DNA of 64,000 bases. It comes from an uncultured Phycisphaerales bacterium (GTDB taxonomy: Bacteria; Planctomycetota; Phycisphaerae; Tepidisphaerales; Tepidisphaeraceae). Under the pieces are notes generated by a model. That model worked only from the letters and a program-made list of their open reading frames with translations, was not told the DNA's origin and did no database searches. The DNA lies in assembly GCA_963758525.1 (NCBI GenBank), contig CAVWVQ010000003.1:2368001-2432000 (forward strand). The letters run 5' to 3'. This document shows, piece after piece, positions 3,471 to 17,709 of this stretch. How positions within the stretch are numbered: the first letter of the stretch is position 1; each line of letters starts with the position of its first letter. Position numbers and translations under genes: made by a program.

Positions 3471-5154
3471 TTACACCTTGGCGAGCGGACGGGCGGCGGC
3501 GGATTCGTAGTCGCGGATCGCCTCGACGGCGTCGAGGGGGGTCTGCGCCTGGGAGAGGGCGCGGCGCAATTCGCGGTTTTGCAGCGCACGGCCGACGCGG
3601 GCGAGAAGCTGGAGGTGAATATTTGACCCGCTCTCGGGGGAGAGAAGCAGAAACACCGCCTCGACCGGTTTTTCCGTCTGGGCGTCGAGCACGCCGCCGT
3701 GGGTCAGCCCAAGGGCGACGAGCGGCTCGTTGATTTCCTCGAGACGCGCGTGCGGGAGGGCAATCCCTTCGTTGAGATAGGTCGATCCCTGCTTCTCGCG
3801 CTCCAGCAGCTTTTCGATGACGTGCTGCGGCTCCAGCGACGGATTGCCTCGCGTGACGGATTCAACCAGGCGCTTGCGGATATCCCTGGTGGTGATCGGA
3901 TCCTTCCAGATGACAATGCGCTCGGGCGCGAGAAGCCCGCTCAGAATCCCCGGCGGCCGGGCGGCGCCGTCGTTTGACGGGGCGTTGGGCTCGATGAATT
4001 CGGTGGAGGTGCGCTCGTCGCTTTCGGCGTCAACGACGACGATCGTCACGCCGCGGGCGCGATGGATCAGTCCTTCGGCGACGCTCTTCTCGCCGCTGAT
4101 GCGCCGCCACCAGGGAAGCCGGCGCGGCCGGCCGATGACCACCTGCCCGACGCGATATTCCTTGGCGAAGCGCAGAATCGTGTCAACCACGTCCTGGCCT
4201 TTGAAGGTGAAGACCATGGCGCCCAACTGGTTGGCAAGCGTAAGCGTGTCGGCCAGCAGGCGCTGGGTGACCGCGTCGATGACCGTCGGCTCTTCGCGCG
4301 GGGTCTGCACGTAGATGGCATACCAGTTGCGATTGAGCCGGCCCGCGAGGCGCGACGCAAAGCGAAGCAGCCGCGCGCTGTTGGGCCCGCGCGACGAGAG
4401 GCAGACCATGATCTGGTCGGGGGCGCCGTTGGTAGGCGGCGCGTGCTGGTCCTGGGCGGTCTCGCGGCGCTTGAAGTCGAGCTGCGAGGCCAGCTCGCGC
4501 AGCGTGAGCTCGCGCAGATGTTCGAGATTGGACTCGGTAAAGAAATTCTCCAGCGACGACGCGACGCGATCCTTCGGATAAATCTTCCCTTCGCGCAGGC
4601 GCGTCTGCAGATCCTCCGCGGCCAGGTCGATGTTGACCACCTGATCGGCCTCGGAGAGCACCGAGTCGGGAATGCGCTCGCGCACCTTCACGCCGATGAG
4701 CTGTTCGACGGTGTTGTAGAGGCTCTCCAGATGCTGCACGTTGAGCGCGGAGATGACGTGAATTCCCGCGGCGAGAATGTCCTGCACGTCCTGGTATCGC
4801 TTGGCATTGCGGCTGCCGGGAACATTGGTGTGGGCAAGCTCGTCGACGAGCACCACCTGCGGCTTGGCGCCAGGATCGCGTCAACGTCCATCTCTTCGAC
4901 GACGATGCCGTGATATTCGCTCTTTCGGCGCGGGATCACTTCAAGGCCGTCAATCAGCTTGGCAGTTTCGGCGCGACCATGCGTTTCGACCAGTCCGACG
5001 ACGACGTCGATTCCGTCTTTCTTGAGGCGATGCGCCTCGGAGAGCATCTGAAACGTCTTGCCGACGCCGGGGCCGTAGCCGAGATAGACTTTCAGCCGGC
5101 CGCGCTGGGAGCGACGAATGAGCTGGAGAAAAGCTTGGCGCGGTCTTCAGACAT
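3471..5154 (-). CDS. kdpD: Soluble KdpD N-terminal sensor domain + Usp + PTS EIIA type-2 domain fusion (two frameshifts, ~5138 and ~4868)
   Basis: RGRLKVYLGYGPGVGKT Walker A; VETHGR; LVDELAHTN..KRYQDV; Usp MVCLSS...WYAIYV; C-terminal 'EREKQGSTYLNEGIALPHARL...HLQLLARV' EIIA signature. No TM, HisKA or HATPase domain. Confidence 0.9.
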
Positions 5155-5160
5155 ATTTAG

Positions 5161-5344
5161 GTACCACGGGTTTCCAACCCGTGCGAGGAGCATCAGAACG
5201 ACAAAGGCCCCGGGCTCTCTCTGAACCCGACTCGAAGAAAACTCGTGCGAACAGCATCAAAAGGACAACGACTCCAGTTTCTGCGTCAGGGGAATATCAT
5301 CACTTTACTGCTGCGCACTATGCACGGGTTGGAAACCCGTGGTA
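5161..5344. repeat. REP-like inverted pair, family A (GTACCACGGGTTTCCAACCCGTG)
   Basis: Copies at 5161-5184 and 5322-5344 (inverted); the second overlaps the 3' end of a small gene. Confidence 0.85.
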
Positions 5345-5559
5345 CGTGTAAGTCTCCAGCGGTTGAGCGCGACGAGCGACCAGATCGCTTCAACCAGGCC
5401 GAAGGGCCACGCGCCCTGCAGGAAGCCGTAAATTGACCCCATTACGCAGGAGCCCGCGAAGGCCAGGACGTACCAGGGCGAGCGGTCTTCCATCGCGTAG
5501 GTGAAGAGCATCAGGCTCACCGCGAGGAGTCCGAATAATGTGAGACGATCGAGTGTCAT
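5305..5559 (-). CDS. Small membrane protein (84 aa, about 3 TM) within the kdp operon
   Basis: MTLDRLTLFGLLAVSLMLFTYAMEDRSPWYVLAFAGSCVMGSIYGFLQGAWPFGLVEAIWSLVALNRW; the last residues are contributed by a REP. Confidence 0.75.
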   Translation of the reverse strand: MTLDRLTLFGLLAVSLMLFTYAMEDRSPWYVLAFAGSCVMGSIYGFLQGAWPFGLVEAIWSLVALNRWRLTRTTGFQPVHSAQQ

Positions 5560-5562
5560 ACC

Positions 5563-5660
5563 TGTACCACGGGTTTCCAACCCGTGCCTGCGGCTGCAAA
5601 GATCAAACGACGCAACTGTACCACTCTCGCACAACACACGGGTTGGAAACCCGTGGTACA
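5563..5660. repeat. REP-like inverted pair, family A
   Basis: tgtaccacgggtttccaacccgtgc and acacgggttggaaacccgtggtaca. Confidence 0.85.
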
Positions 5661-5725
5661 AACGGCGGTCGCGGGGCGGCGTGTGGCGATGCCAGGCCCC
5701 GCGACCAGCCGGGAAGTCGATCTGG

Positions 5726-6640
5726 TTATTTGACCGGCGCCGTCGTCGGTGCCGTGGCGGGCGGCGCGGGGACGGGGTAGGCCGCATCCAGCGCCAGGTT
5801 CGCCATGAGCACATTCACGCCCGGATCGCCAAGAAGCCCGAAACTAGGATTGTCGGTGTGCTGATCGAGCAGTGCCAGCACTCTCTCGACTGGAACGTGC
5901 CGCGCATCGGCGACGCGCCGGGCCTGCATGCGGGCGTTGTCGGGACTGATGTGCGGATCGAGACCGGAGGCGGAAGCAGTGACGGCATCGCTGGGAATCA
6001 GAACGGCCGATCCGTCGGCTTTTCTGAAATCGCCGGCGACGAGTACGACGCGATCGGCCGCATCGCTGGCCGGATGCGGGAAAGCGTCGATCAGTGCGAC
6101 ATCGTTGAGATTGCCCTGCGCATCGGTGAACTTGGCCAGCGGAACTTCATCGCGTGTTCCGTCAGGCTTCAGATTGTAGAGCTTGAACGACAGGCCATTG
6201 TCCATCGCATAATGCAGCGTCCGCAGGCGAACACCGTCGTAGGCGACCGACTCCGGCTGGGTCGTCGGCTGCGTGGTGGCGGCGTTGGTGACTCCATTGA
6301 GCAGCTTATCGCTCAGCGGCCCCAGGTTGCTCCCGCCCGAACTGCTCGGATCGTAGCCACTGCCCGCGGCGCTGGGCCGGGGATGGAAATATCCCGGGAA
6401 AGTGAACGACTGCCCGAGAAGAGACGAACCTACCGCCTGATCATCTTTGGTGGTGAAGCTTCCGTCCCGTTTGACCAGCGATCCGTTCGCGCGGGCGGGG
6501 AAGAGTGCCTGCCCGAGTCCCCAGACAATCAGCGGATAGATTCCGCAGCAGATGATCACCAGCACGATCGTGGCGCTGATGGACGAGAATAAATGGCGAA
6601 CGAATGATCCGCCGGATTCTGAATGTAATTTCTGAGTCAT
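5726..6640 (-). CDS. kdpC: K+-transporting ATPase subunit C (extended, ~304 aa)
   Basis: GIYPL..G.GQALFP.RANGSL, YFHPRPSAAG, SGGSNLGP, DAVTASASGLDPHISP, VNVL..NLALD; carries a large internal insertion. Confidence 0.93.
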   Translation of the reverse strand: MTQKLHSESGGSFVRHLFSSISATIVLVIICCGIYPLIVWGLGQALFPARANGSLVKRDGSFTTKDDQAVGSSLLGQSFTFPGYFHPRPSAAGSGYDPSSSGGSNLGPLSDKLLNGVTNAATTQPTTQPESVAYDGVRLRTLHYAMDNGLSFKLYNLKPDGTRDEVPLAKFTDAQGNLNDVALIDAFPHPASDAADRVVLVAGDFRKADGSAVLIPSDAVTASASGLDPHISPDNARMQARRVADARHVPVERVLALLDQHTDNPSFGLLGDPGVNVLMANLALDAAYPVPAPPATAPTTAPVK

Positions 6641-6654
6641 GACTGCTCCGTTTG

Positions 6655-6783
6655 TAAACCCGAACGACGAGACCCGATCGCAAAACAAATCCGAATGACG
6701 AAACCCGATCGCGTAACAAACCCGAATGACGAAACCCGAATCCCCGAATCAAGTCCGAATGACGAATGACCGAATGACGAAAC
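6655..6783. repeat. Degenerate tandem repeat (CCGAATGACGAAA / CGAATGA) in the kdpB-kdpC spacer
   Basis: Several copies of ccgaatgacgaa, and duplicated aaacccgatcgc..acaaa. Confidence 0.7.
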
Positions 6784-6879: not shown

Positions 6880-8917
6880 TCAACTCACAACGTGCCGGAC
6901 GAGCAAATCGATCGCCCAGATGCCGGGGAACGGGCAGATCACGCCACCCACTCCGTAGACCAGGAGGTTGCGGCGCAGAATGACCGATGCGGATGCGGGT
7001 CGGAATTTCACGCCGCGCAGGGCCAGGGGAATCAGCAGGATGATGATGACGGCATTGAAGATGACGGCACTGAGGATCGCGCTGTGTGGGGACGCCAGGC
7101 GCATCACATTCAACGGCGCGATCTGCGGAAACGCGCCAACGAGCATCGCGGGGATGATGGCAAAGTATTTGGCGACGTCGTTGGCCACGCTGAACGTCGT
7201 GAGGGCGCCGCGGGTCATCAGCAGTTGCTTGCCGATCTCGACAACTTCAATCAGCTTCGTCGGATTGCTGTCGAGATCGACCATGTTGCCCGCTTCCTTG
7301 GCGGCCTGGGTGCCGGTGTTCATCGCGACGCCCACGTCCGCCTGCGCCAGGCGCTGGCGCGTCGTTGGTTCCATCGCCGGTCATCGCGACCAGGTGACCG
7401 CTCGCTTGCTCCTTCTTGAGCAGCGCCAGCTTGGCTTCGGGCGTGGCCTGGGCGAGGAAATCATCGACGCCGGCCTCTTTGGCAATCGCTGCAGCCGTCA
7501 GCGGATTGTCGCCGGTGATCATGACTGTCTTAATGCCCATGGCGCGGAAGCGCTGGAAGCGGTCGGGCAAGCCCTGTTTGACGATGTCCTTCAGATAGAT
7601 CACGCCGAGCGCTTTGGTCCTGGTGGCGACGACCAGAGGCGTACCGCCGGCGCGACTGATCTTCTCGACCGACTGATCCAATTCCGATGCGAAGACGCCG
7701 CCGCTTTCGGCGACGAACTTTCGCACGCTGTCAGCCGCGCCTTTGCGATACACCTCACCGTTGACATTCAATCCGCTCATGCGGGTCTGGGCGGTAAACG
7801 GCACGAACACCGCGTGCGGCATCTCGCTGATTTCGCGGCCCCGCAGGCCGTACTTCTCCTTGGCGAGGACCACGATGCTGCGCCCTTCGGGCGTTTCGTC
7901 GGCGAGACTCGAAAGCTGCGCCGCGTTGGCCAGTTCCTCGGAGGAGACGCCCGGAGCGCACAGGAATTCCGCCGCCTGGCGATTCCCGAGCGTGATCGTG
8001 CCGGTCTTGTCGAGCAGGAGCACGTCGACGTCCCCCGCCGCCTCGACGGCCTTGCCGCTCATGGCAAGCACGTTGTGCTGCACCATGCGGTCGATCCCGG
8101 CGATGCCGATGGCGGACAGAAGGCCGCCGATCGTGGTTGGAATCAGGCAGACGAGCAGTGAGACCAGGACGGTGACGGTGATCGCCGCATCGACCGACGG
8201 ACCGGAGTACTGCGCGAAAGGCTTGAGGGTCACGCAGACCACCAGGAAGATAATCGTCAGCGCCGACAGCAGGATCGAGAGGGCGATCTCGTTGGGCGTC
8301 TTCTGGCGCTTGGCCCCTTCGATCAGCTCGATCATGCGGTCCATGAAACTCTCGCCGGGGTTGGCGGTGACGCGGATCTTGAGCTCGTCGGAAAGTACGG
8401 TGGTGCCGCCCGTCACCGCCGAGCGGTCGCCGCCGGCCTCGCGGATGACGGGAGCGGATTCGCCGGTGATGGCGGATTCGTTAACGCTGGCGGCGCCTTC
8501 AATGATCTCCCCGTCGGCGGCAATCAACTCATTGGCCGTGACGACCAACACATCGCCCTTGCGGAGCGATTCTGCCGCCACGGTCTGAATCGACCCGTCG
8601 GGCATGAGCTTTCGCCCGACGCTTTTGGTGCGGCTCTTGCGCAGCGTGTCCGCCTGGGCCTTGCCGCGCCCTTCGGCCATCGCTTCCGCGAAGTTGGCGA
8701 AGATGACGGTGAACCAGAGCCACAGCGAGATCTGGGCGACGAAGGATCGCGCATCTTTCGTAAAGAAAAGATCGACCGTGGTGACGGCAGCGCCAACCTG
8801 GGTCACAAACATGACCGGGTTCTTCCACATGTGAACTGGATTCAGCTTTTTGAGACTCTCGATGATCGCCGGCTTGACGATCTCCGCATCGAATAATGGT
8901 CGTGCTTTGGTAGCCAT
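6880..8917 (-). CDS. kdpB: K+-transporting ATPase subunit B (one frameshift ~7350)
   Basis: [25 protein letters not shown] phosphorylation site, TGDN, GDGTND; continues [32 protein letters not shown] in the next frame. Confidence 0.97.
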
Positions 8918-8948
8918 AATAGTTCTCTCTATACAGACGGATTCTAGA

Positions 8949-10709
8949 TCAGTACGTGAGTTTGGATCCGGTCATAATGTAATGCTCGACAATTGGGGAC
9001 AGGGACAGCACCGGGAAGAACGTCAGCGCGCCGACGATGATGACGGTGCCGATGAGCAGCACGATGAACGTTGGTCCGGTGACCGGAAAGCTTCCGACAC
9101 TTGCCGGGGCGGCTTTTTTCTTCACGAGACTTCCGGCCAGAGCGAGGACGGGAACGATCATGAAGAACCTTCCGAAGAGAATGACGATGCCGAGGATGGT
9201 GTCCCAGTGACGATCGCCGTTGGTTGGCGCGCAAGTTAGACCTGCGAACGCGGAGCCGTTATTCCCGGTTCCGGAGCTGAACGCGTAGAGCATTTCGCCC
9301 AGCCCGTGCGGTCCGTTGTTGTTGAGTCCCGCCTGACCCCAATCGCTGATCGATGCCCAGGCGGTTGGCACGAGCACGCCAAACGCGGTGACCAGCACCA
9401 TCAGGGACGCGAGCTTTACGTCGTACGCTTCGATTTTCTTTCCGAGGTATTCGGGCGTTCGCCCGATCATGAGCCCGGCGATGAAGATGGCGACGAAGAC
9501 GAACACAAGCATGCCGTAGAGCCCTGAACCGACGCCGCCGAAAATCACCTCGCCGAGCTGCATGTTGATCAGCGGAATCAAGCCGCCCAGCGGCGTGAAG
9601 CTGTCGTGCATGGAGTTGACCGCGCCGCACGTGGTGCTGGTGGTCATCGCGGCAAAGGCGGCGGAGTTCATCACGCCGAAGCGCACTTCCTTCCCTTCCA
9701 TGTTCCCGTAACCAGGATCGACTCCGAGGTCGGCCAGTCGCGGGTTGCCGTGCGACTCGGCCGCCCAGCAAACAATGATCCCGGTCACCAGGACGATGAA
9801 CATCGCCGCCCAGACGGCCCAGCCGTGCGCCTGCTTGTTGACCATTCGGCCCAGGTAATAGGTCAACGCGCTGGCAACCGACATGAACGAGACGATCTGT
9901 ACGAAATCGACCAGCGGGTTGGGGTTCTCAAAGGGGTGAGAACTGTTGGCATTGTAGTAGCCGCCGCCGTTGGTCCCGAACATCTTGATGGCAATCATCG
10001 AAGCGACCGGTCCCTGGGCGATGGTCTGCGCGGTGGGCTGGGTCGTCGAAGCCGCGCCGGATTGATCCAGCGCGTTCACGACAGAATAAGGACGGAAATT
10101 CTGCGGCGTACCCTGCGAGATCAGGAACAATGCATAGACGATCGAGAGGGGCAGCAACAGATAGAGATTGAGCCGCACCAGGTCGCGCCAGAAGTTGCCG
10201 ATGGTCGAGCCGGCACTGGTTGCAATGCCGCGCACCAGCGCCGCCGCCACGGCGATACCGACAGCCGCCGAGAAGTAGTGGTGCATGACCAGAGCCACCA
10301 TCTGGGAGAAGTAGCTCATCGTCGATTCGCCGCCGTAGCTCTGCCAGTTTGTGTTGGTGAGGAAGCTGGCGGCAGTATTGAACGCGAGATGATCCGGCAC
10401 CGCGGGGAGTCCCTGCGGATTGAGCGGCAGCTTGGCCTGGAAGCGCAGCAGGCCGTAGGTCACGAGCATCGTCACGCAACTGAAGATCAGCATCGCGACG
10501 CTGTACTCTTTCCAGTTCTGCTCCTTCTTCGGATCGACGCCAAACATCTTGTAGAGCAACCGTTCGATCGGCCCGAGCGCGCGCTCCAGCGCGGTTCCTC
10601 CCTGCCGCTCCGGATCGAGAATGTGCAGCAGGTAAATTCCCAGCGGCTTGGTGAGCAAAGCGACCGCGCCAAGCATCAAAGCCAGTTGAAACCAGTCCGA
10701 ACCACGCAT
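8949..10709 (-). CDS. kdpA: K+-transporting ATPase subunit A
   Basis: [45 protein letters not shown]. Confidence 0.98.
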
Positions 10710-10823: not shown

Positions 10824-10907
10824 TCAAAATTTCTCGGGACGAATCAGTGAAGCGAACAGATAGATCACCAGGCTGATCGCCACGATTCCCACACAAAGGT
10901 TTTCCAT
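10824..10907 (-). CDS. kdpF: K+-transporting ATPase subunit F
   Basis: MENLCVGIVAISLVIYLFASLIRPEKF, with the characteristic YL...L.RPEKF end. Confidence 0.9.
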   Translation of the reverse strand: MENLCVGIVAISLVIYLFASLIRPEKF

Positions 10908-11089: not shown

Positions 11090-11835
11090 TCAAAATGTCT
11101 CCGGTCCATCACCAATCAGCGACGGCATCGCCGGCGAGGTGACGTCATCGCCAAAGGCAACGGGGCGCACACTCTTGCCGTGGTAGCGGATGTCGGCCAG
11201 GCGGCGCAGATTTTCCTGGGCCGGCTGATAACCCCGGTTGCTCATCGCGGACTTCTCGTAGAACTTGCGTGCGCTTTCCACGCGTCCGTGCGATTCGTGA
11301 AGCACGCCGGCAAGATTCAGAAATGCCGGGTCTTCGTCGGCGATCATTCCGGCGCTCATCAGCCCGGCTTCCGCCTGGCGAAATTCTCCGCGCGCAGGGC
11401 GTCGCGCACTCTCTGCAGCACCTCCCCATAGCCGGCGCTGGGCGCCCGCAGATGGGCGGGGAGCTCGTCGTGCAGCACGCTGGCAACGCTGAGGCGCAGC
11501 TCGTCGGGCGTGAACGGCTTCTCGATGAAGTCGCTGGCGCCCAGGCGAATCGCCTGGATCGCATTCCGCACCGATCCGTGCGCCGTCATCACGATCGCTC
11601 GCGGCATCTGATGCGATAGCAGGCCGCGGATTTCCGCCAGCACGGTCATTCCATCGAGCACCGGCATTGCCAGATCGAGCAGCACCAGGTCCGGCGGCGA
11701 GGCATGTATCTGCTGCAGCGCGTCGCCGCCGTTGACCGCATGCTCGATGGCGTATCCCGCCGCCTCCAGGCAGAGGCGCACCGACGTGCGGATGTTCGCG
11801 TCGTCATCCACGATGAGAATTCGTATTGCATGCAT
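11090..11835 (-). CDS. Response regulator receiver + TPR-like C-terminal domain (frameshift ~11375)
   Basis: ILIVDDD, LVLLDLAMP, TAHG, KPF; tail 'AFLNLAGVLHESHG...ARKFYEKS...YQPAQENLRRL'. Confidence 0.85.
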
Positions 11836-11879
11836 GGGAAGAGCCCCTTGCTTCAAAACGTTGTCTTCAGTGCCCGCCG

Positions 11880-12625
11880 CTACTCCGCATTCACCACGTG
11901 AAACGGAATCTCTCCCTGCGCGTCGCCCCCGAGCATCACACTTTGCGAACTGCGTCCGAACGAATGCAACTCATACAGGCGGCGGATGTTCAACTGCGAC
12001 GGTTGATAATTCCGATCGGCCGCGATCGCCTTGCCATAACACTTGGCGCCAGCCGCCATTTCCGCTGCACCTCATAGAGCACTCCGAGCAAGTTGAAATA
12101 TTGAGCGCTCTCCTGCTCGCGCACTTCGGCGGCCTTGGTCAGCAGCGACTCGGCGCTTGAGAAATCCGCCTGCCGCAACGAGCGGCGAATCCGTTCCAGC
12201 ACCTCCGCGTACCCTCCCGCCACGTCCGAGCCGACGGGCGGCGAATCGAGCTCGGGCTCTTCGAGTATGCTTCGGACGCTTCGCCGAAGCTCCGTGGGAG
12301 TCAGCGGCTTCTCGAGAAAATCCAGCGCTCCCAGGCGCGTTGCCTTCACCGCCGACTGGATCGACCCGTACGCCGTGAGAATCATCACGCGAGGCATGCG
12401 CACGTGGGGCAATTCCCTGAGCCGCTCGAGCACCGCCATCCCGTCCATCACCGGCATATTCAGATCGAGCACCACCAGGTCCGGCATGTGCTGCTCGATC
12501 GCCGCCAGCGCCTCACGGCCGTTGGCGGCTTCGTTCACCTCGTGCCCGTCGGCCTCGAGGGCCGTGCGGAGCATCATCCGGATGTTGGATTCATCGTCCG
12601 TTATAAGAATAGACGCCGGCATCAT
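11880..12625 (-). CDS. Response regulator receiver + TPR-like domain, paralogue of the adjacent gene (frameshift ~12047; 3' end approximate)
   Basis: ILITDDE, LVVLDLNMP, TAYG, KP; tail 'YFNLLGVLYEVQRKWRLA' continues 'KCYGKAIAADRNYQPSQLNIRRLYEL' in another frame. Confidence 0.85.
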
Positions 12626-14546
12626 GGGTCTCCTTGTGCGGTTCGTTGGCCGGCTGATCGGCGCGCTGCAGCGTGAAGCTCAGCCGGCTTCCTTCGCCCT
12701 CGCGGCTCTGCGCCGCGATGTGGCCGCCATGCGCTTCGACAATTTCTTTTGCAATCGCCAGCCCAAGCCCCGCCCCAGGAACCTGGTTTTCGCGCGGCAC
12801 GCGGAAAAAACGCTCGAAGATACGCGGCAGAAATTCCGCTGGAATTCCCATTCCCGTGTCTTCGACGACGAAGCGCACCATGGAGTCTTCGTTTGCCGCG
12901 GTCACCCGCACGCGTCCGCCGGGCGCGGTGAACTTCAGCGAGTTGCCCAGCAGATTCGAGAATACATGATCGATCCGCGCCGGATCGACCAGTACGGGTG
13001 CAACGTCGCCCGGCACGTCGACCTCCAGGGTCACGCCGCGATCGTGAAACGCTGTTTCCAGCGGCGTGATCGCATCCGACACCAGTCGCTCGGCGGGCTC
13101 CGAACGAAGATCCAGCTCGACTCGGCCGGATTCGAGCCGGCCCATGTCCAGAAGATCGGCGATGATTCGTTCGAGCCGATCGCTGTCTTCGCGGGCCGCC
13201 ATCAGCAGTTCCGTCTGTTTCAAGCTCAACGGTCCCACCTGCTCCTCCAGGAGCAGATGCACCGCCATGCGGATCGACGTCAACGGCGTCTTCAGCTCGT
13301 GCGACACCACCGACAGCAGGCCGCTCTTCATCTCGTCGAGACGCCGCAAGTTGGTGACATCCGCCAGAACCAGCGTGACGCCCAGAAGATGATGCTCCGC
13401 GTCGCGGATCGGCACCGCGTGCGGCAGGAAGTATTTCAACTGCCCGCCCTGGTCGTAGACTTCGATGGCGCCTTCATATCCGCGACGCTCCAGCGGACGA
13501 TCCGCCGCCGCGACCTCGCGGACGATCTGCGCCAGACGCGGGTCGGAGGCCTGCGTGATCTCCATGCCGGGATCGAGCTGAAAGAGACGATGCGCCGTTT
13601 CGTTGGAAAGCTCGATGTGTCCGTCGGGGCTGATGATCGCGATCGCGTCGGGCAGGCTGTTGACCGCCAGTTGCGTGGTCCGTTGCGTGCGAACCAGCTT
13701 GGCGCGGTCCGTCCGGCGAAACTCCCGGAGCTTGGCCGTCATGGAATTAAACGCCTCGGCAAGCTGATGCAGCTCGTCGCGCGATCTCACCTGCACCACC
13801 AGATCCAGATTCCCCTGTTCAATTTCCCGGATCGATTTGGTCACGGTCGCAAGCGGACGCAGGATCGATCGACCGACGAAATAGGTAAAGACAATCGCCA
13901 AAGCGATCCCGGTTGCCGCCAGCAGCACCATCATTCGGGTTGCGCTGTCGGCCATCCGCTTGGCGCGGCCGTCAACCGGCTTCATGTTGTCAAGATTCAG
14001 CCGGATCACCCCCTGCGCCTGGGCTTTGAGCAGTGGCGAAACCCGCGTCAGCGTCGCATAGGCGTCGATGCGTTGTTTCCCCGTCGTCTTTGGATCGAGC
14101 AGGCTCAAAAACGCTTCGCGGTATGAATCGCTCGGCAGCTTTTCGCCGGCGAGGCTCTGGCCCTTCCATAGACGCGTCAACTCCGATGCGATCTTGTCCT
14201 CGCCTTCGAGGGTGATGTTGTGGTCCTCCGCGCTGCAGTTCGTCTCGAACTGACCGAGCGGACGATCCTGCGAGCGAAGATCACCGGCGCTATTAGATGC
14301 GGCCTGCAACTCAGCTTTCGTTGGCTCACGCGGCTCGCCGGAGATCGGCCGGGCGATGTCGTTCAATCGCTCCAGCGAGTCGAGCATGTGCTGGCCATAT
14401 TCCACGCTGCGCCAGTTCTCGTAAAAGAACTTGTCCAGCGCCGCGCGATATTGCGTGAGCACGGCAATTCCCAGCCCGCTCACGACGAGCAGAATCGCCA
14501 GAAGCCCGCCGAAGCCAAACGAGAGTTTTTGCTTGAGCCCAAACAT
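12591..14546 (-). CDS. Membrane sensor histidine kinase (2 TM, periplasmic domain, HAMP, PAS, HisKA, HATPase; KinB-like)
   Basis: VSHELKTPLTS H-box, NLLGNSLKF N-box, DTGMGI, IFERFFR, GAGLGL; HAMP 'SRDELHQLAEAFNSM'. Confidence 0.95.
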   Translation of the reverse strand: MFGLKQKLSFGFGGLLAILLVVSGLGIAVLTQYRAALDKFFYENWRSVEYGQHMLDSLERLNDIARPISGEPREPTKAELQAASNSAGDLRSQDRPLGQFETNCSAEDHNITLEGEDKIASELTRLWKGQSLAGEKLPSDSYREAFLSLLDPKTTGKQRIDAYATLTRVSPLLKAQAQGVIRLNLDNMKPVDGRAKRMADSATRMMVLLAATGIALAIVFTYFVGRSILRPLATVTKSIREIEQGNLDLVVQVRSRDELHQLAEAFNSMTAKLREFRRTDRAKLVRTQRTTQLAVNSLPDAIAIISPDGHIELSNETAHRLFQLDPGMEITQASDPRLAQIVREVAAADRPLERRGYEGAIEVYDQGGQLKYFLPHAVPIRDAEHHLLGVTLVLADVTNLRRLDEMKSGLLSVVSHELKTPLTSIRMAVHLLLEEQVGPLSLKQTELLMAAREDSDRLERIIADLLDMGRLESGRVELDLRSEPAERLVSDAITPLETAFHDRGVTLEVDVPGDVAPVLVDPARIDHVFSNLLGNSLKFTAPGGRVRVTAANEDSMVRFVVEDTGMGIPAEFLPRIFERFFRVPRENQVPGAGLGLAIAKEIVEAHGGHIAAQSREGEGSRLSFTLQRADQPANEPHKETHDAGVYSYNGR

Positions 14547-14565: not shown

Positions 14566-14582
14566 GCGAAGCTGATGCCAAA
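14566..14582 (-). promoter_or_regulatory. Putative sigma54 (-24/-12) promoter for the kinase-RR-kdp operon
   Basis: Minus strand TTTGGCATCAGCTTCGC: GG (14579-78), N10, GC (14567-66), about 20 nt before ATG 14546. Confidence 0.65.
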
Positions 14583-15454: not shown

Positions 15455-16812
15455 TCAGATCCCGTACTTCTTCCGCCGTCTCCACAGCGTGGCGACGTCA
15501 ACTCCCAACACCTTTGACGCCTCATCAAGCGAGCGAGTCTTCGCCAGCACGCGACGAATATGCATTTCCTCAAGCTGATCCAGCGAAACCAGATCGCCGA
15601 CGCCCACCGCGGCCGGCGGCGCCTCGGCCGGCGAAAAGCCGCCGGGCAGATGCTCCAGCCCGACCCGGCCGCTCTGACAGAGAATCAGCGCGCGTTCAAC
15701 CACGTTGCGCAGCTCGCGAATATTGCCCGGCCAGTGATAGGCGCAGGCGCTGCTTCGGTTTCAGGCGCGAATCCCTCCACCGGCTTTCCGCGCCTAAGTT
15801 CCCCCAGGAAACGCTCCGCCAGAACGATCACGTCCTCCGGCCGCTCGCGCAGCGCCGGAAGATCCAACTGCACCACCTTAATCCGATAGAGCAGGTCTTC
15901 GCGGAATCGCCCGGCGCTGACGGCCTCTTCGAGATCGACGTTCGTCGCGGCAATCACCCGCACGTCCGCCCGCCTGGTCCGCGCTTCACCCACTCGCTCA
16001 TACTCGCGGTCCTGCACAAAGCGCAGCAACTTCGGCTGAAGGTTCAACGGCAGATCGCCGATCTCATCGAGAAACAGCGTGCCGCCGTCCGAGCTGGCGA
16101 TGCGTCCCGGATTGTCGCGCACCGCCCCGGTGAACGCTCCGCGGGCATGTCCGAACAATTCGCTCTCCAGCAACTGTGCCGACAGCGTCGGACACGCGAT
16201 GGTCGCAAACGGCTTCTCCCGCCTGCCGCTCCACGCGTGAATCGCATGGGCGACCACGCCCTTCCCCGTCCCGCTCTCGCCGCGGAGCAGGACCGTGGTA
16301 TCCGTCACGGCCACTTGCTGCGCGAGATTGATCACCCGCTGCACGGCGGGGCTGCCGCTCTTGAGCATCACGTCAGGCTGGCGGCTCCCCAGCGCCCCCT
16401 CCAAGCCCGCCACCTGCAGTTCCAGCGCCCGCACGCGCATCACGCGCTCGGTCGTCAGCCGCAGCTGCGCCGGGGTAAACGGCTTGGTCAGATAATCCGC
16501 CGCCCCGCGCCGCATCGTCTCCACCGCGCTGTCGATCGAGCCATGCGCCGTGATGATGATCACGCGGATCCACGGGCTCTGCGCCAGCAATTCAGGGATC
16601 AGATCCAATCCCAGCGTCGCCCCCAGCCGCAAATCCACGAACGCCAGATCAAACGGCTGGCGCGTCGCCTCGGCAACCGCGTCCCCGGCGTTGCTCACCG
16701 CAACCACGCGATGCCCGTCGGCCTCGAGCCCGATCGCCAGCGTCTTGCGAATGTTGATCTCGTCGTCGACGACCAGCACGCTCAACGAAATTCCCGGGGT
16801 CTTCTCATTCAT
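15455..16812 (-). CDS. Sigma54-dependent response regulator (NtrC/AlgB family; frameshift ~15745)
   Basis: Receiver [54 protein letters not shown] and a Fis-type HTH in the second frame. Confidence 0.96.
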
Positions 16813-17627: not shown

Positions 17628-17709
17628 GCCCAGGTGGCGGAACTGGCAGACGCACTACTTTGAGGTGGTAGCGCCGCAAGGCGTGCAGGTTCAAATCCTG
17701 TCCTGGGCA
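17628..17709 (+). tRNA. tRNA-Leu (anticodon GAG), CCA not encoded
   Basis: Acceptor GCCCAGG/CCTGGGC, D-arm TGGCGGAACTGGCAGACGC, anticodon arm CTACT-TTGAGGT-GGTAG, long variable arm, T-loop GGTTCAAATCC. Confidence 0.95.

Follow-up and report, generated by a model that had tools for sequence, protein, structure and literature searches.

The kdp cluster and the fusion gene

The stretch of DNA analysed here (the window, 64,000 nucleotides long) carries on its minus strand a kdp cluster whose kdpABC genes are followed by a last gene joining a KdpD domain, a Usp domain and a PTS EIIA domain. The features, all on the minus strand, are as follows.

3471..5154 (-): kdpD-EIIA fusion gene, 561 aa once two one-base deletions are restored; start ATG at 5154-5152, stop TAA at 3473-3471
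3492..3956 (-): PTS EIIA type-2 (PtsN-like) domain; Arg57-equivalent at 3800-3798, His73-equivalent at 3752-3750
4053..4415 (-): Usp domain with the E. coli-type motif RxxxR-X8-WxA(V/I)Y
4482..5107 (-): KdpD domain PF02702, an atypical serine kinase domain (function from PMC11018627, as accessible)
Sites in the KdpD domain (-): Walker A GYGPGVGKT at 5080-5054, Walker B DE at 4844-4839, R190-equivalent at 4514-4512
5726..6688 (-): kdpC
6880..8917 (-): kdpB, with a frameshift near 7351; TGES serine, the predicted kinase target, at 8458-8456
8949..10709 (-): kdpA
10824..10907 (-): kdpF-like membrane peptide of 27 aa
10910..10993 (-): second small hydrophobic ORF of 27 aa, directly upstream of kdpF
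11090..11856 (-): receiver-domain protein 2, apparently split by a frameshift near 11360-11380
11919..12625 (-): receiver-domain protein 1, with a frameshift near 12045
12591..14546 (-): membrane histidine kinase with two TM stretches, HAMP-PAS-HisKA-HATPase, intact
14566..14580 (-): sigma-54 -24/-12-like site, with two mismatches to the consensus; its position is conserved in relatives
15455..16812 (-): NtrC-family sigma-54 activator, with a frameshift near 15757

The peptide at 10824..10907 is presumably kdpF, a label based on its position and its likeness to KdpF. The frameshift in the NtrC-type gene was placed by reference to an unpublished locus, L009 (G207), which also enters the 27-locus counts given below as one row, as well as alignments A1-A3, the tree and the promoter scan; the main conclusions are independent of it.

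An earlier note, made from the letters of this DNA, had described a KdpD-Usp-EIIA fusion with this start and stop and without a membrane part, and the fusion is confirmed as real, conserved and soluble. Pfam searches recovered the three domains that the note had expected: KdpD PF02702, split over two matches (E 2e-20 and 2e-51), Usp PF00582 just over the cut-off (E 3e-5) and PTS_EIIA_2 PF00359 at E 6e-24 (85 bits, cut-off 27). The Usp and EIIA domains share a single open frame of 461 aa, and the stop that the note had allowed for between them is absent from the sequence. Both the PF00359 match and the EIIA fold identify the C-terminal domain as PTS_EIIA_2, and it carries the GIALPHARL motif with the His codon where the note had placed it. 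No transmembrane stretch was found in the fusion protein, in which the top 19-residue hydropathy mean is 1.2, against more than 1.8 in the neighbouring kinase. Up to the EIIA domain the layout is that of a short KdpD, PF02702 followed by Usp without TM, GAF, DHp or CA parts; the broken pieces in the window reach 234 and 71 bits with the short-KdpD model NF038185, whose cut-off is 550 bits.

An AlphaFold model of an intact relative (P0004, 561 aa, 89% identical to the window protein; mean pLDDT 75) matches three kinds of known structure: the N-terminal part of KdpD in 2R8R (TM 0.92), PtsN (target TM-score 0.81-0.87) and the Usp domain of S. aureus KdpD in 7JI4 (E 7e-8). With a pTM of 0.41 and low confidence at linker residues 379-400, this single-chain model gives no docked contact between EIIA and kinase domain.

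Several smaller features of the region were recorded. A short element of the GTACCACGGGTTTCCAACCCGTG type is repeated in both orientations between kdpC and kdpD (5165-5185, 5340-5350, 5563-5590 and 5640-5665, by eye), flanking a small membrane ORF at about 5385-5560 and having a REP-type appearance. KdpC contains an insertion of about 85-100 aa that splits its Pfam match in two, with similar splits in Tepidisphaeraceae loci and L013. A second kdpA copy occurs in Tepidisphaeraceae/Phycisphaerales kdp operons (L003, at 8303-9904, and L005, L006 and L007, within the range L004-L007), and in L049 such a copy lies between kdpC and kdpD. Just upstream of the cluster is a tRNA gene at 17628-17709.

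Distribution of the fusion

At least 120 protein matches listed carry both PF02702 and PF00359, most of them about 560 aa long and the window's own protein among them. A chance read-through or chimera was ruled out, the fusion being intact in more than 100 independent proteins. Eighty loci were taken from the 345 confirmed, and 31 of them extend into EIIA (27 intact, two frameshifted and two cut by contig ends). By record titles and NCBI ranks, the bearers belong to Planctomycetota (with Tepidisphaeraceae as nearest kin), Fibrobacterota, Lentisphaerota, Bdellovibrionota, Latescibacterota and Myxococcota, together with unclassified delta-proteobacteria and one Bacillota MAG. The EIIA profile matched 22 of 150 representatives at 50% identity, 11 being full-length with Walker B and His motifs, and two fusion representatives at this level are named from Leptospira sp. 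and Thermoanaerobaculia.

The fusion is patchily distributed, being present in 3 of 201 genomes of the class (41 with some KdpD), 3 of 301 in the phylum and 11 of 41 around G211. In a quick KdpD-Usp tree, covering 25 of 47 short proteins and leaving root and monophyly aside, the label has to change three times, which agrees with a single gain followed by two losses; the probable double loss of EIIA, in L045 and in L047, suggests that it is dispensable. No EIIA was found within the loci of unfused short KdpDs, and in the 16 genomes with unfused proteins no free EIIA belonged to the fused family (best scores at most 98 bits).

The KdpD domain as a probable serine kinase

Silberberg et al. (2024, PMC11018627, as accessible) showed that the KdpD domain by itself inhibits the pump and phosphorylates KdpB at Ser162, an activity that requires G36/K37/T38, W39/R190 and D109/E110. 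According to the same text, an N-terminal fragment of KdpD and a short Deinococcus KdpD-Usp protein both phosphorylate E. coli KdpB, the latter kinase being stimulated by c-di-AMP, and the control of the serine kinase activity is left open (PMC11018627).

Every catalytic residue is present in the window's KdpD domain (Walker A G-X5-GKT, Walker B and the aromatic39/R190 pair). All 27 intact fusion loci keep the equivalents of G36, K37, T38, D109, E110 and R190; in the 114 close homologues, the G, K, D, E and R are likewise constant, and T38 is T in 111 and S in three. Position 39 is aromatic (Y or F) in 26 of 27 fusion loci; the window has F there, and Y predominates among relatives and is also the residue of the active Deinococcus enzyme. 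The KdpB TGES serine is intact in the window operon, and TGES turned up in 27 of 31 fusion loci, the corresponding part of kdpB lying outside the locus in at least three of the other four. TGES is known to be universal in KdpB, a necessary and not a discriminating feature.

Full residue conservation and the published biochemistry make it highly probable that the fusion protein phosphorylates KdpB. The label 'kinase-less', which the earlier note had given to this protein, thus has to be withdrawn, since its KdpD domain corresponds to the published serine kinase for KdpB Ser162 (PMC11018627, as accessible) and keeps the catalytic residues; the note was right that the histidine-kinase half is missing. 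No canonical KdpD histidine kinase or KdpDE pair was found in the genome (90.9% complete), in which the fusion is the sole KdpD-domain locus; likewise, the TM/GAF part of E. coli KdpD had no match in this 90.9%-complete genome, and KdpE-like matches reach only 31-35% identity over most of the protein. Many proteins of 730-780 aa (P0156, P0163, P0165 and others) are tandem KdpD+Usp duplications, a class that is present in the 2024 survey (PMC11018627, as accessible).

The EIIA domain and the PTS relay

The Arg57 and His73 equivalents (numbered by alignment to E. coli PtsN) are kept without exception in the 27 loci, in the 114 close homologues and across the 11 full-length clusters at 50% identity, which fits continued phosphotransfer. 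We take this His to be the phospho-acceptor and the Arg to be the known EIIA type-2 residue. Over 116 aa the fused EIIA shares 39% identity with E. coli PtsN, and its identity to the two free EIIAs of its own genome is 32% and 26%; with 69.9 bits against a cut-off of 138.7 for the PtsN equivalog TIGR01419, it is PtsN-like and not a PtsN orthologue. Fused EIIAs form a family of their own (they score 173-208 bits, free EIIAs 99 at most), in all members of which the Gly64 of E. coli PtsN and of the genome's free EIIA is replaced by F/Y beside the active site, a change that could alter HPr docking.

The genome encodes one HPr, enzyme I (EI) and a diadenylate cyclase, and contains an hpf-EIIA-HPr-EI cluster (labels partly by eye). 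The phospho-His is retained by the fusion, as the earlier note had seen. HPr was found in all 27 fusion genomes, and the N-terminal domain of EI in each of the 26 that were searched for it; HPr also occurs in 16 of 16 genomes with unfused short KdpDs, and its presence is non-discriminating. Phosphorylation of the EIIA His by the EI-HPr relay is probable. A role in sugar transport was rejected, as no PF02378 permease was found in the genome (90.9% complete) or near the fusion gene.

The Usp domain and c-di-AMP

The older S. aureus c-di-AMP motif, SXS-X20-FTAXY (PMC4686210, as accessible), occurs in none of the 27 fusion loci, and the E. coli-type motif occurs in 21 of them and in the window. 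Of the five positions of the refined motif, (A/G/C)xSxSx2N...(Y/F) (PMC8214093, as accessible), the window's Usp domain keeps three or four: the C242, S244 and Y271 equivalents are present, and N249 is present only when counted from the cysteine, a one-residue insertion making it ambiguous. The S246 equivalent is R/H/Q/K in 27 of 27 fusion loci; the fusion's Usp resembles the c-di-AMP receptor Usp of S. aureus KdpD in structure (7JI4) and differs from it at S246 (PMC4686210, PMC8214093). A search of the Usp sequence against the PDB gave nothing significant. A diadenylate cyclase was detected in all but three of the 27 fusion genomes, and the Usp domain may add a c-di-AMP input. The three exceptions are Fibrobacteria (L028, L039 and L042), in which the Usp S244 and N249 equivalents are D and E; this coincidence counts as a single event and is no more than a hint.

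Transcriptional wiring

The usual gene order among the loci is NtrC-type activator, HAMP-PAS kinase, an optional receiver, kdpABC and a short kdpD with or without EIIA. A sigma-54-like site closely precedes the kinase in 30 of 48 regions, where 200 mononucleotide shuffles gave 1.4 on average and 6 at most; upstream of kdpA such a site was found in 0 of 50. The window combines activator, kinase and -24/-12 site, and its genome encodes rpoN, as in a sigma-54-controlled kdp operon of the DVU3334 type; such wiring, a kinase with an NtrC-type regulator, is known from Desulfovibrio (PMC3333781, as accessible). No riboswitch was found in the window.

The kinases vary in their H-box, which reads HQLKTPLT and not HELKTPLT in 11 of 21 fusion loci plus L045 (L012, L014, L015, L019, L033, L036, L038, L040, L041, L044 and L046, and L045), following one tree branch, and has lost its His in L018; kinases with an altered H-box, that of L018 included, may be weak, phosphatase-biased or dead. 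The tandem receiver proteins at 11090-12625, between kinase and kdp genes, have helical C-terminal tails; one receiver copy is common in Planctomycetota loci and two are rare (L051 has two). Desulfobaccales-type loci (L021, L022 and L024-L027) contain an unfused short KdpD together with an opposite-strand Usp-TM-GAF-kinase gene, and thus two regulatory systems.

A proposed pump-silencing kinase under PTS control

We propose, with a probability of about one half, that the fusion is a pump-silencing serine kinase gated in cis by PTS phosphorylation and perhaps also by c-di-AMP. The domain order, the absent membrane part and the operon position with kdpABC are the directly observed part of this mechanism. 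The KdpD domain likely acts as an ATP-dependent serine kinase that would phosphorylate the KdpB TGES serine and thereby stop the pump, and EI and HPr likely pass phosphate to the fused EIIA, which would gate the kinase within the same molecule. We lean towards an action of EIIA on the kinase domain of the same protein or at the pump, and not on a histidine kinase. As to direction, there is a slight preference for unphosphorylated EIIA restraining the kinase, with the pump on, and for phosphorylation releasing the shut-off, by weak analogy with E. coli, where unphosphorylated PtsN favours potassium accumulation (PMC13445646, as accessible). The fullest form of the proposal, in which phosphorylation of the EIIA His directly switches the pump-silencing kinase and is integrated in one protein with c-di-AMP at the Usp domain, is more tentative. 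Transcription would form a separate layer, running from the histidine kinase through the NtrC-type activator to the sigma-54 promoter.

The earlier note had instead suggested that the protein acts in trans on the kinase at 12591-14546; in such a scheme, EIIA would bind the neighbouring histidine kinase and tune sigma-54 transcription, with KdpD-Usp as a scaffold or sensor. The kinase indeed accompanies the fusion in 26 of 27 first-set genomes (22 in the locus, four elsewhere in the assembly) and directly adjoins the fusion gene in L042, L107 and L109, but the same kinase also stands beside unfused short KdpDs in many loci. Published work offers precedents, as PtsN binds the DHp domain of E. 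coli KdpD and also activates PhoR (PMC8534201, as accessible), and the Desulfovibrio pair was read as a split kinase (Rajeev et al. 2011, PMC3333781). The docking sites of PtsN, however, are DHp in E. coli and GAF in S. fredii, domains absent from the fusion protein, so that the note's Rosetta-stone argument does not carry over directly. The complete set of serine-kinase residues also argues against a mere scaffold.

Further evidence comes from five genomes (G211, G245, G253, G264 and G267) in which the fusion is the first gene of an operon behind a c-di-AMP riboswitch (87-92 bits; 87 bits in L013, the G211 locus, where an intact fusion leads the operon). No kinase orthologue was found in them, the best profile match being at most 192 bits and none in G267 passing the threshold, against 364-387 bits for the orthologues of five sister genomes; in G211 the best match had 183 bits, against 319-389 in four control genomes. 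G211 also yielded no NtrC orthologue (best 41-43% over full length, against 63%). Among ten fusion-bearing relatives of G211, four have the riboswitch without a kinase orthologue, five have the kinase without the riboswitch, and in one, whose fusion lies on a different and possibly short contig, neither was found. Every motif is intact in the five kinase-free genomes, and EIIA dN/dS is 0.07-0.25 in them and 0.06-0.28 in kinase-bearing Tepidisphaeraceae, against 0.32-2.7, near neutral, for the linker (pairwise and non-independent values, some of them saturated). The low EIIA dN/dS, a mark of purifying selection, together with the kinase orthologue not being found, therefore indicates that EIIA is kept without the kinase in this group, which is one lineage (one event) of MAGs of unstated completeness, and trans action on a neighbouring histidine kinase is not required. 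We regard the trans scheme as unlikely, although an additional effect in trans may exist in genomes that have the kinase. The soluble fusion and the phospho-His of the earlier interpretation stand, and its 'kinase-less sensor' and its action on the kinase at 12591-14546 are not supported.

The kinase-free operon (L013:1708-11698; L101-L104) follows amtB and a PII gene in five of five loci, with a GAF-domain, EI-Ntr-like enzyme I just before amtB/PII in at least three of them; this neighbourhood could reflect shared ancestry of gene order.

Another alternative keeps an active serine kinase but lets EIIA dock on KdpFABC or another potassium transporter, or serve as a non-phosphorylated binding module. 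Such roles have a parallel in unphosphorylated PtsN, which inhibits the K+/H+ antiporter YcgO directly and binds TrkA in vitro (PMC13445646, as accessible), and the separate family of fused EIIAs, with its G64-to-F/Y change and variable linker, would suit them. The invariance of His and Arg at 50% identity speaks for phosphotransfer instead, and we consider docking improbable beside the PTS-gated kinase proposed above.

Relation to known systems

Each part of the proposed system is already known, namely the short-KdpD serine kinase, the control of Kdp by PtsN and the sigma-54 kdp operon. Among the closest known systems is the short KdpD of Deinococcus geothermalis (Q1J2K3; PMC11018627, as accessible), which shares the soluble KdpD+Usp arrangement in a kdp operon, the catalytic residues, the lack of a histidine-kinase half and a diadenylate cyclase in the genome; relative to it and to NF038185 short KdpDs in general, the fusion adds the C-terminal EIIA-2 domain. 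This fusion class is absent from the architecture headings of the 5495-species survey in the accessible text (PMC11018627), and its accessible supplements gave 0 matches to EIIA, PTS or the family motifs.

A PtsN-like domain is likewise coupled to Kdp regulation in E. coli (KdpD with free EIIA-Ntr, PtsN) and in S. fredii (PtsN1-KdpD), but in both, PtsN is a separate protein that acts on transcription, binding the DHp of KdpD in the former (PMC8534201) and the GAF in the latter (PMC9239096), according to the accessible texts. The fusion lacks both domains and joins its EIIA to the probable kinase that acts after translation. In Desulfovibrio vulgaris DVU3334-DVU3339 (Rajeev et al. 2011, PMC3333781, as accessible), as here, kdpFABC stands beside a regulator of its own, a kinase encoded separately and an ORF for a KdpD sensor plus Usp, the window having two extra receiver proteins. 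Compared by description only, DVU3336 is a K+ sensor domain plus UspA, with EIIA unmentioned in the accessible text (PMC3333781).

No publication on a KdpD-Usp-EIIA fusion was found in the literature searched, most subscription papers being outside its reach, and database entries wrongly call the fusion a sensor histidine kinase or a subunit of a sugar transporter. The known link between PTS and Kdp is transcriptional and runs through the histidine-kinase half of KdpD, whereas the fusion ties the PTS acceptor to the N-terminal half and is retained in genomes where no orthologue of the histidine kinase was found. If the proposal is true, the PTS would reach a P-type ATPase post-translationally and independently of any histidine kinase, and a metabolic phosphorelay would tune potassium uptake directly. 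Whether the PTS controls pump shut-off is directly testable in a soluble 560-aa protein with many intact natural copies, also because E. coli KdpB is already known as a substrate of a short KdpD from another organism (PMC11018627, as accessible).

Frame breaks in the window

Alignment with intact relatives places the two one-base deletions in the fusion gene near 5137 and near 4867, and both are probably assembly errors. Frameshifts also affect 3 of 29 essential genes (rpsK, rplE and fusA, over about 25 kb), and the assembly therefore has indel errors. That the cluster is decaying, with the window gene a pseudogene and the family functional only in relatives, is very unlikely: although the kdp cluster has about six frameshifts within 13 kb, denser than in the essential genes, and neither break point was covered by the contigs of two soil DNA runs, which contained 9% of the words (no RNA run was listed), essential genes are affected too, the pieces of the fusion gene are free of premature stops and share 89-96% identity with intact relatives, and its terminal branch in the quick tree is short (0.096, against a median of 0.17). 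An RNase E/G-like gene beside the PTS cluster (L083:1928-4478, label by eye) is likewise split by a frameshift, a further sign of indel errors.
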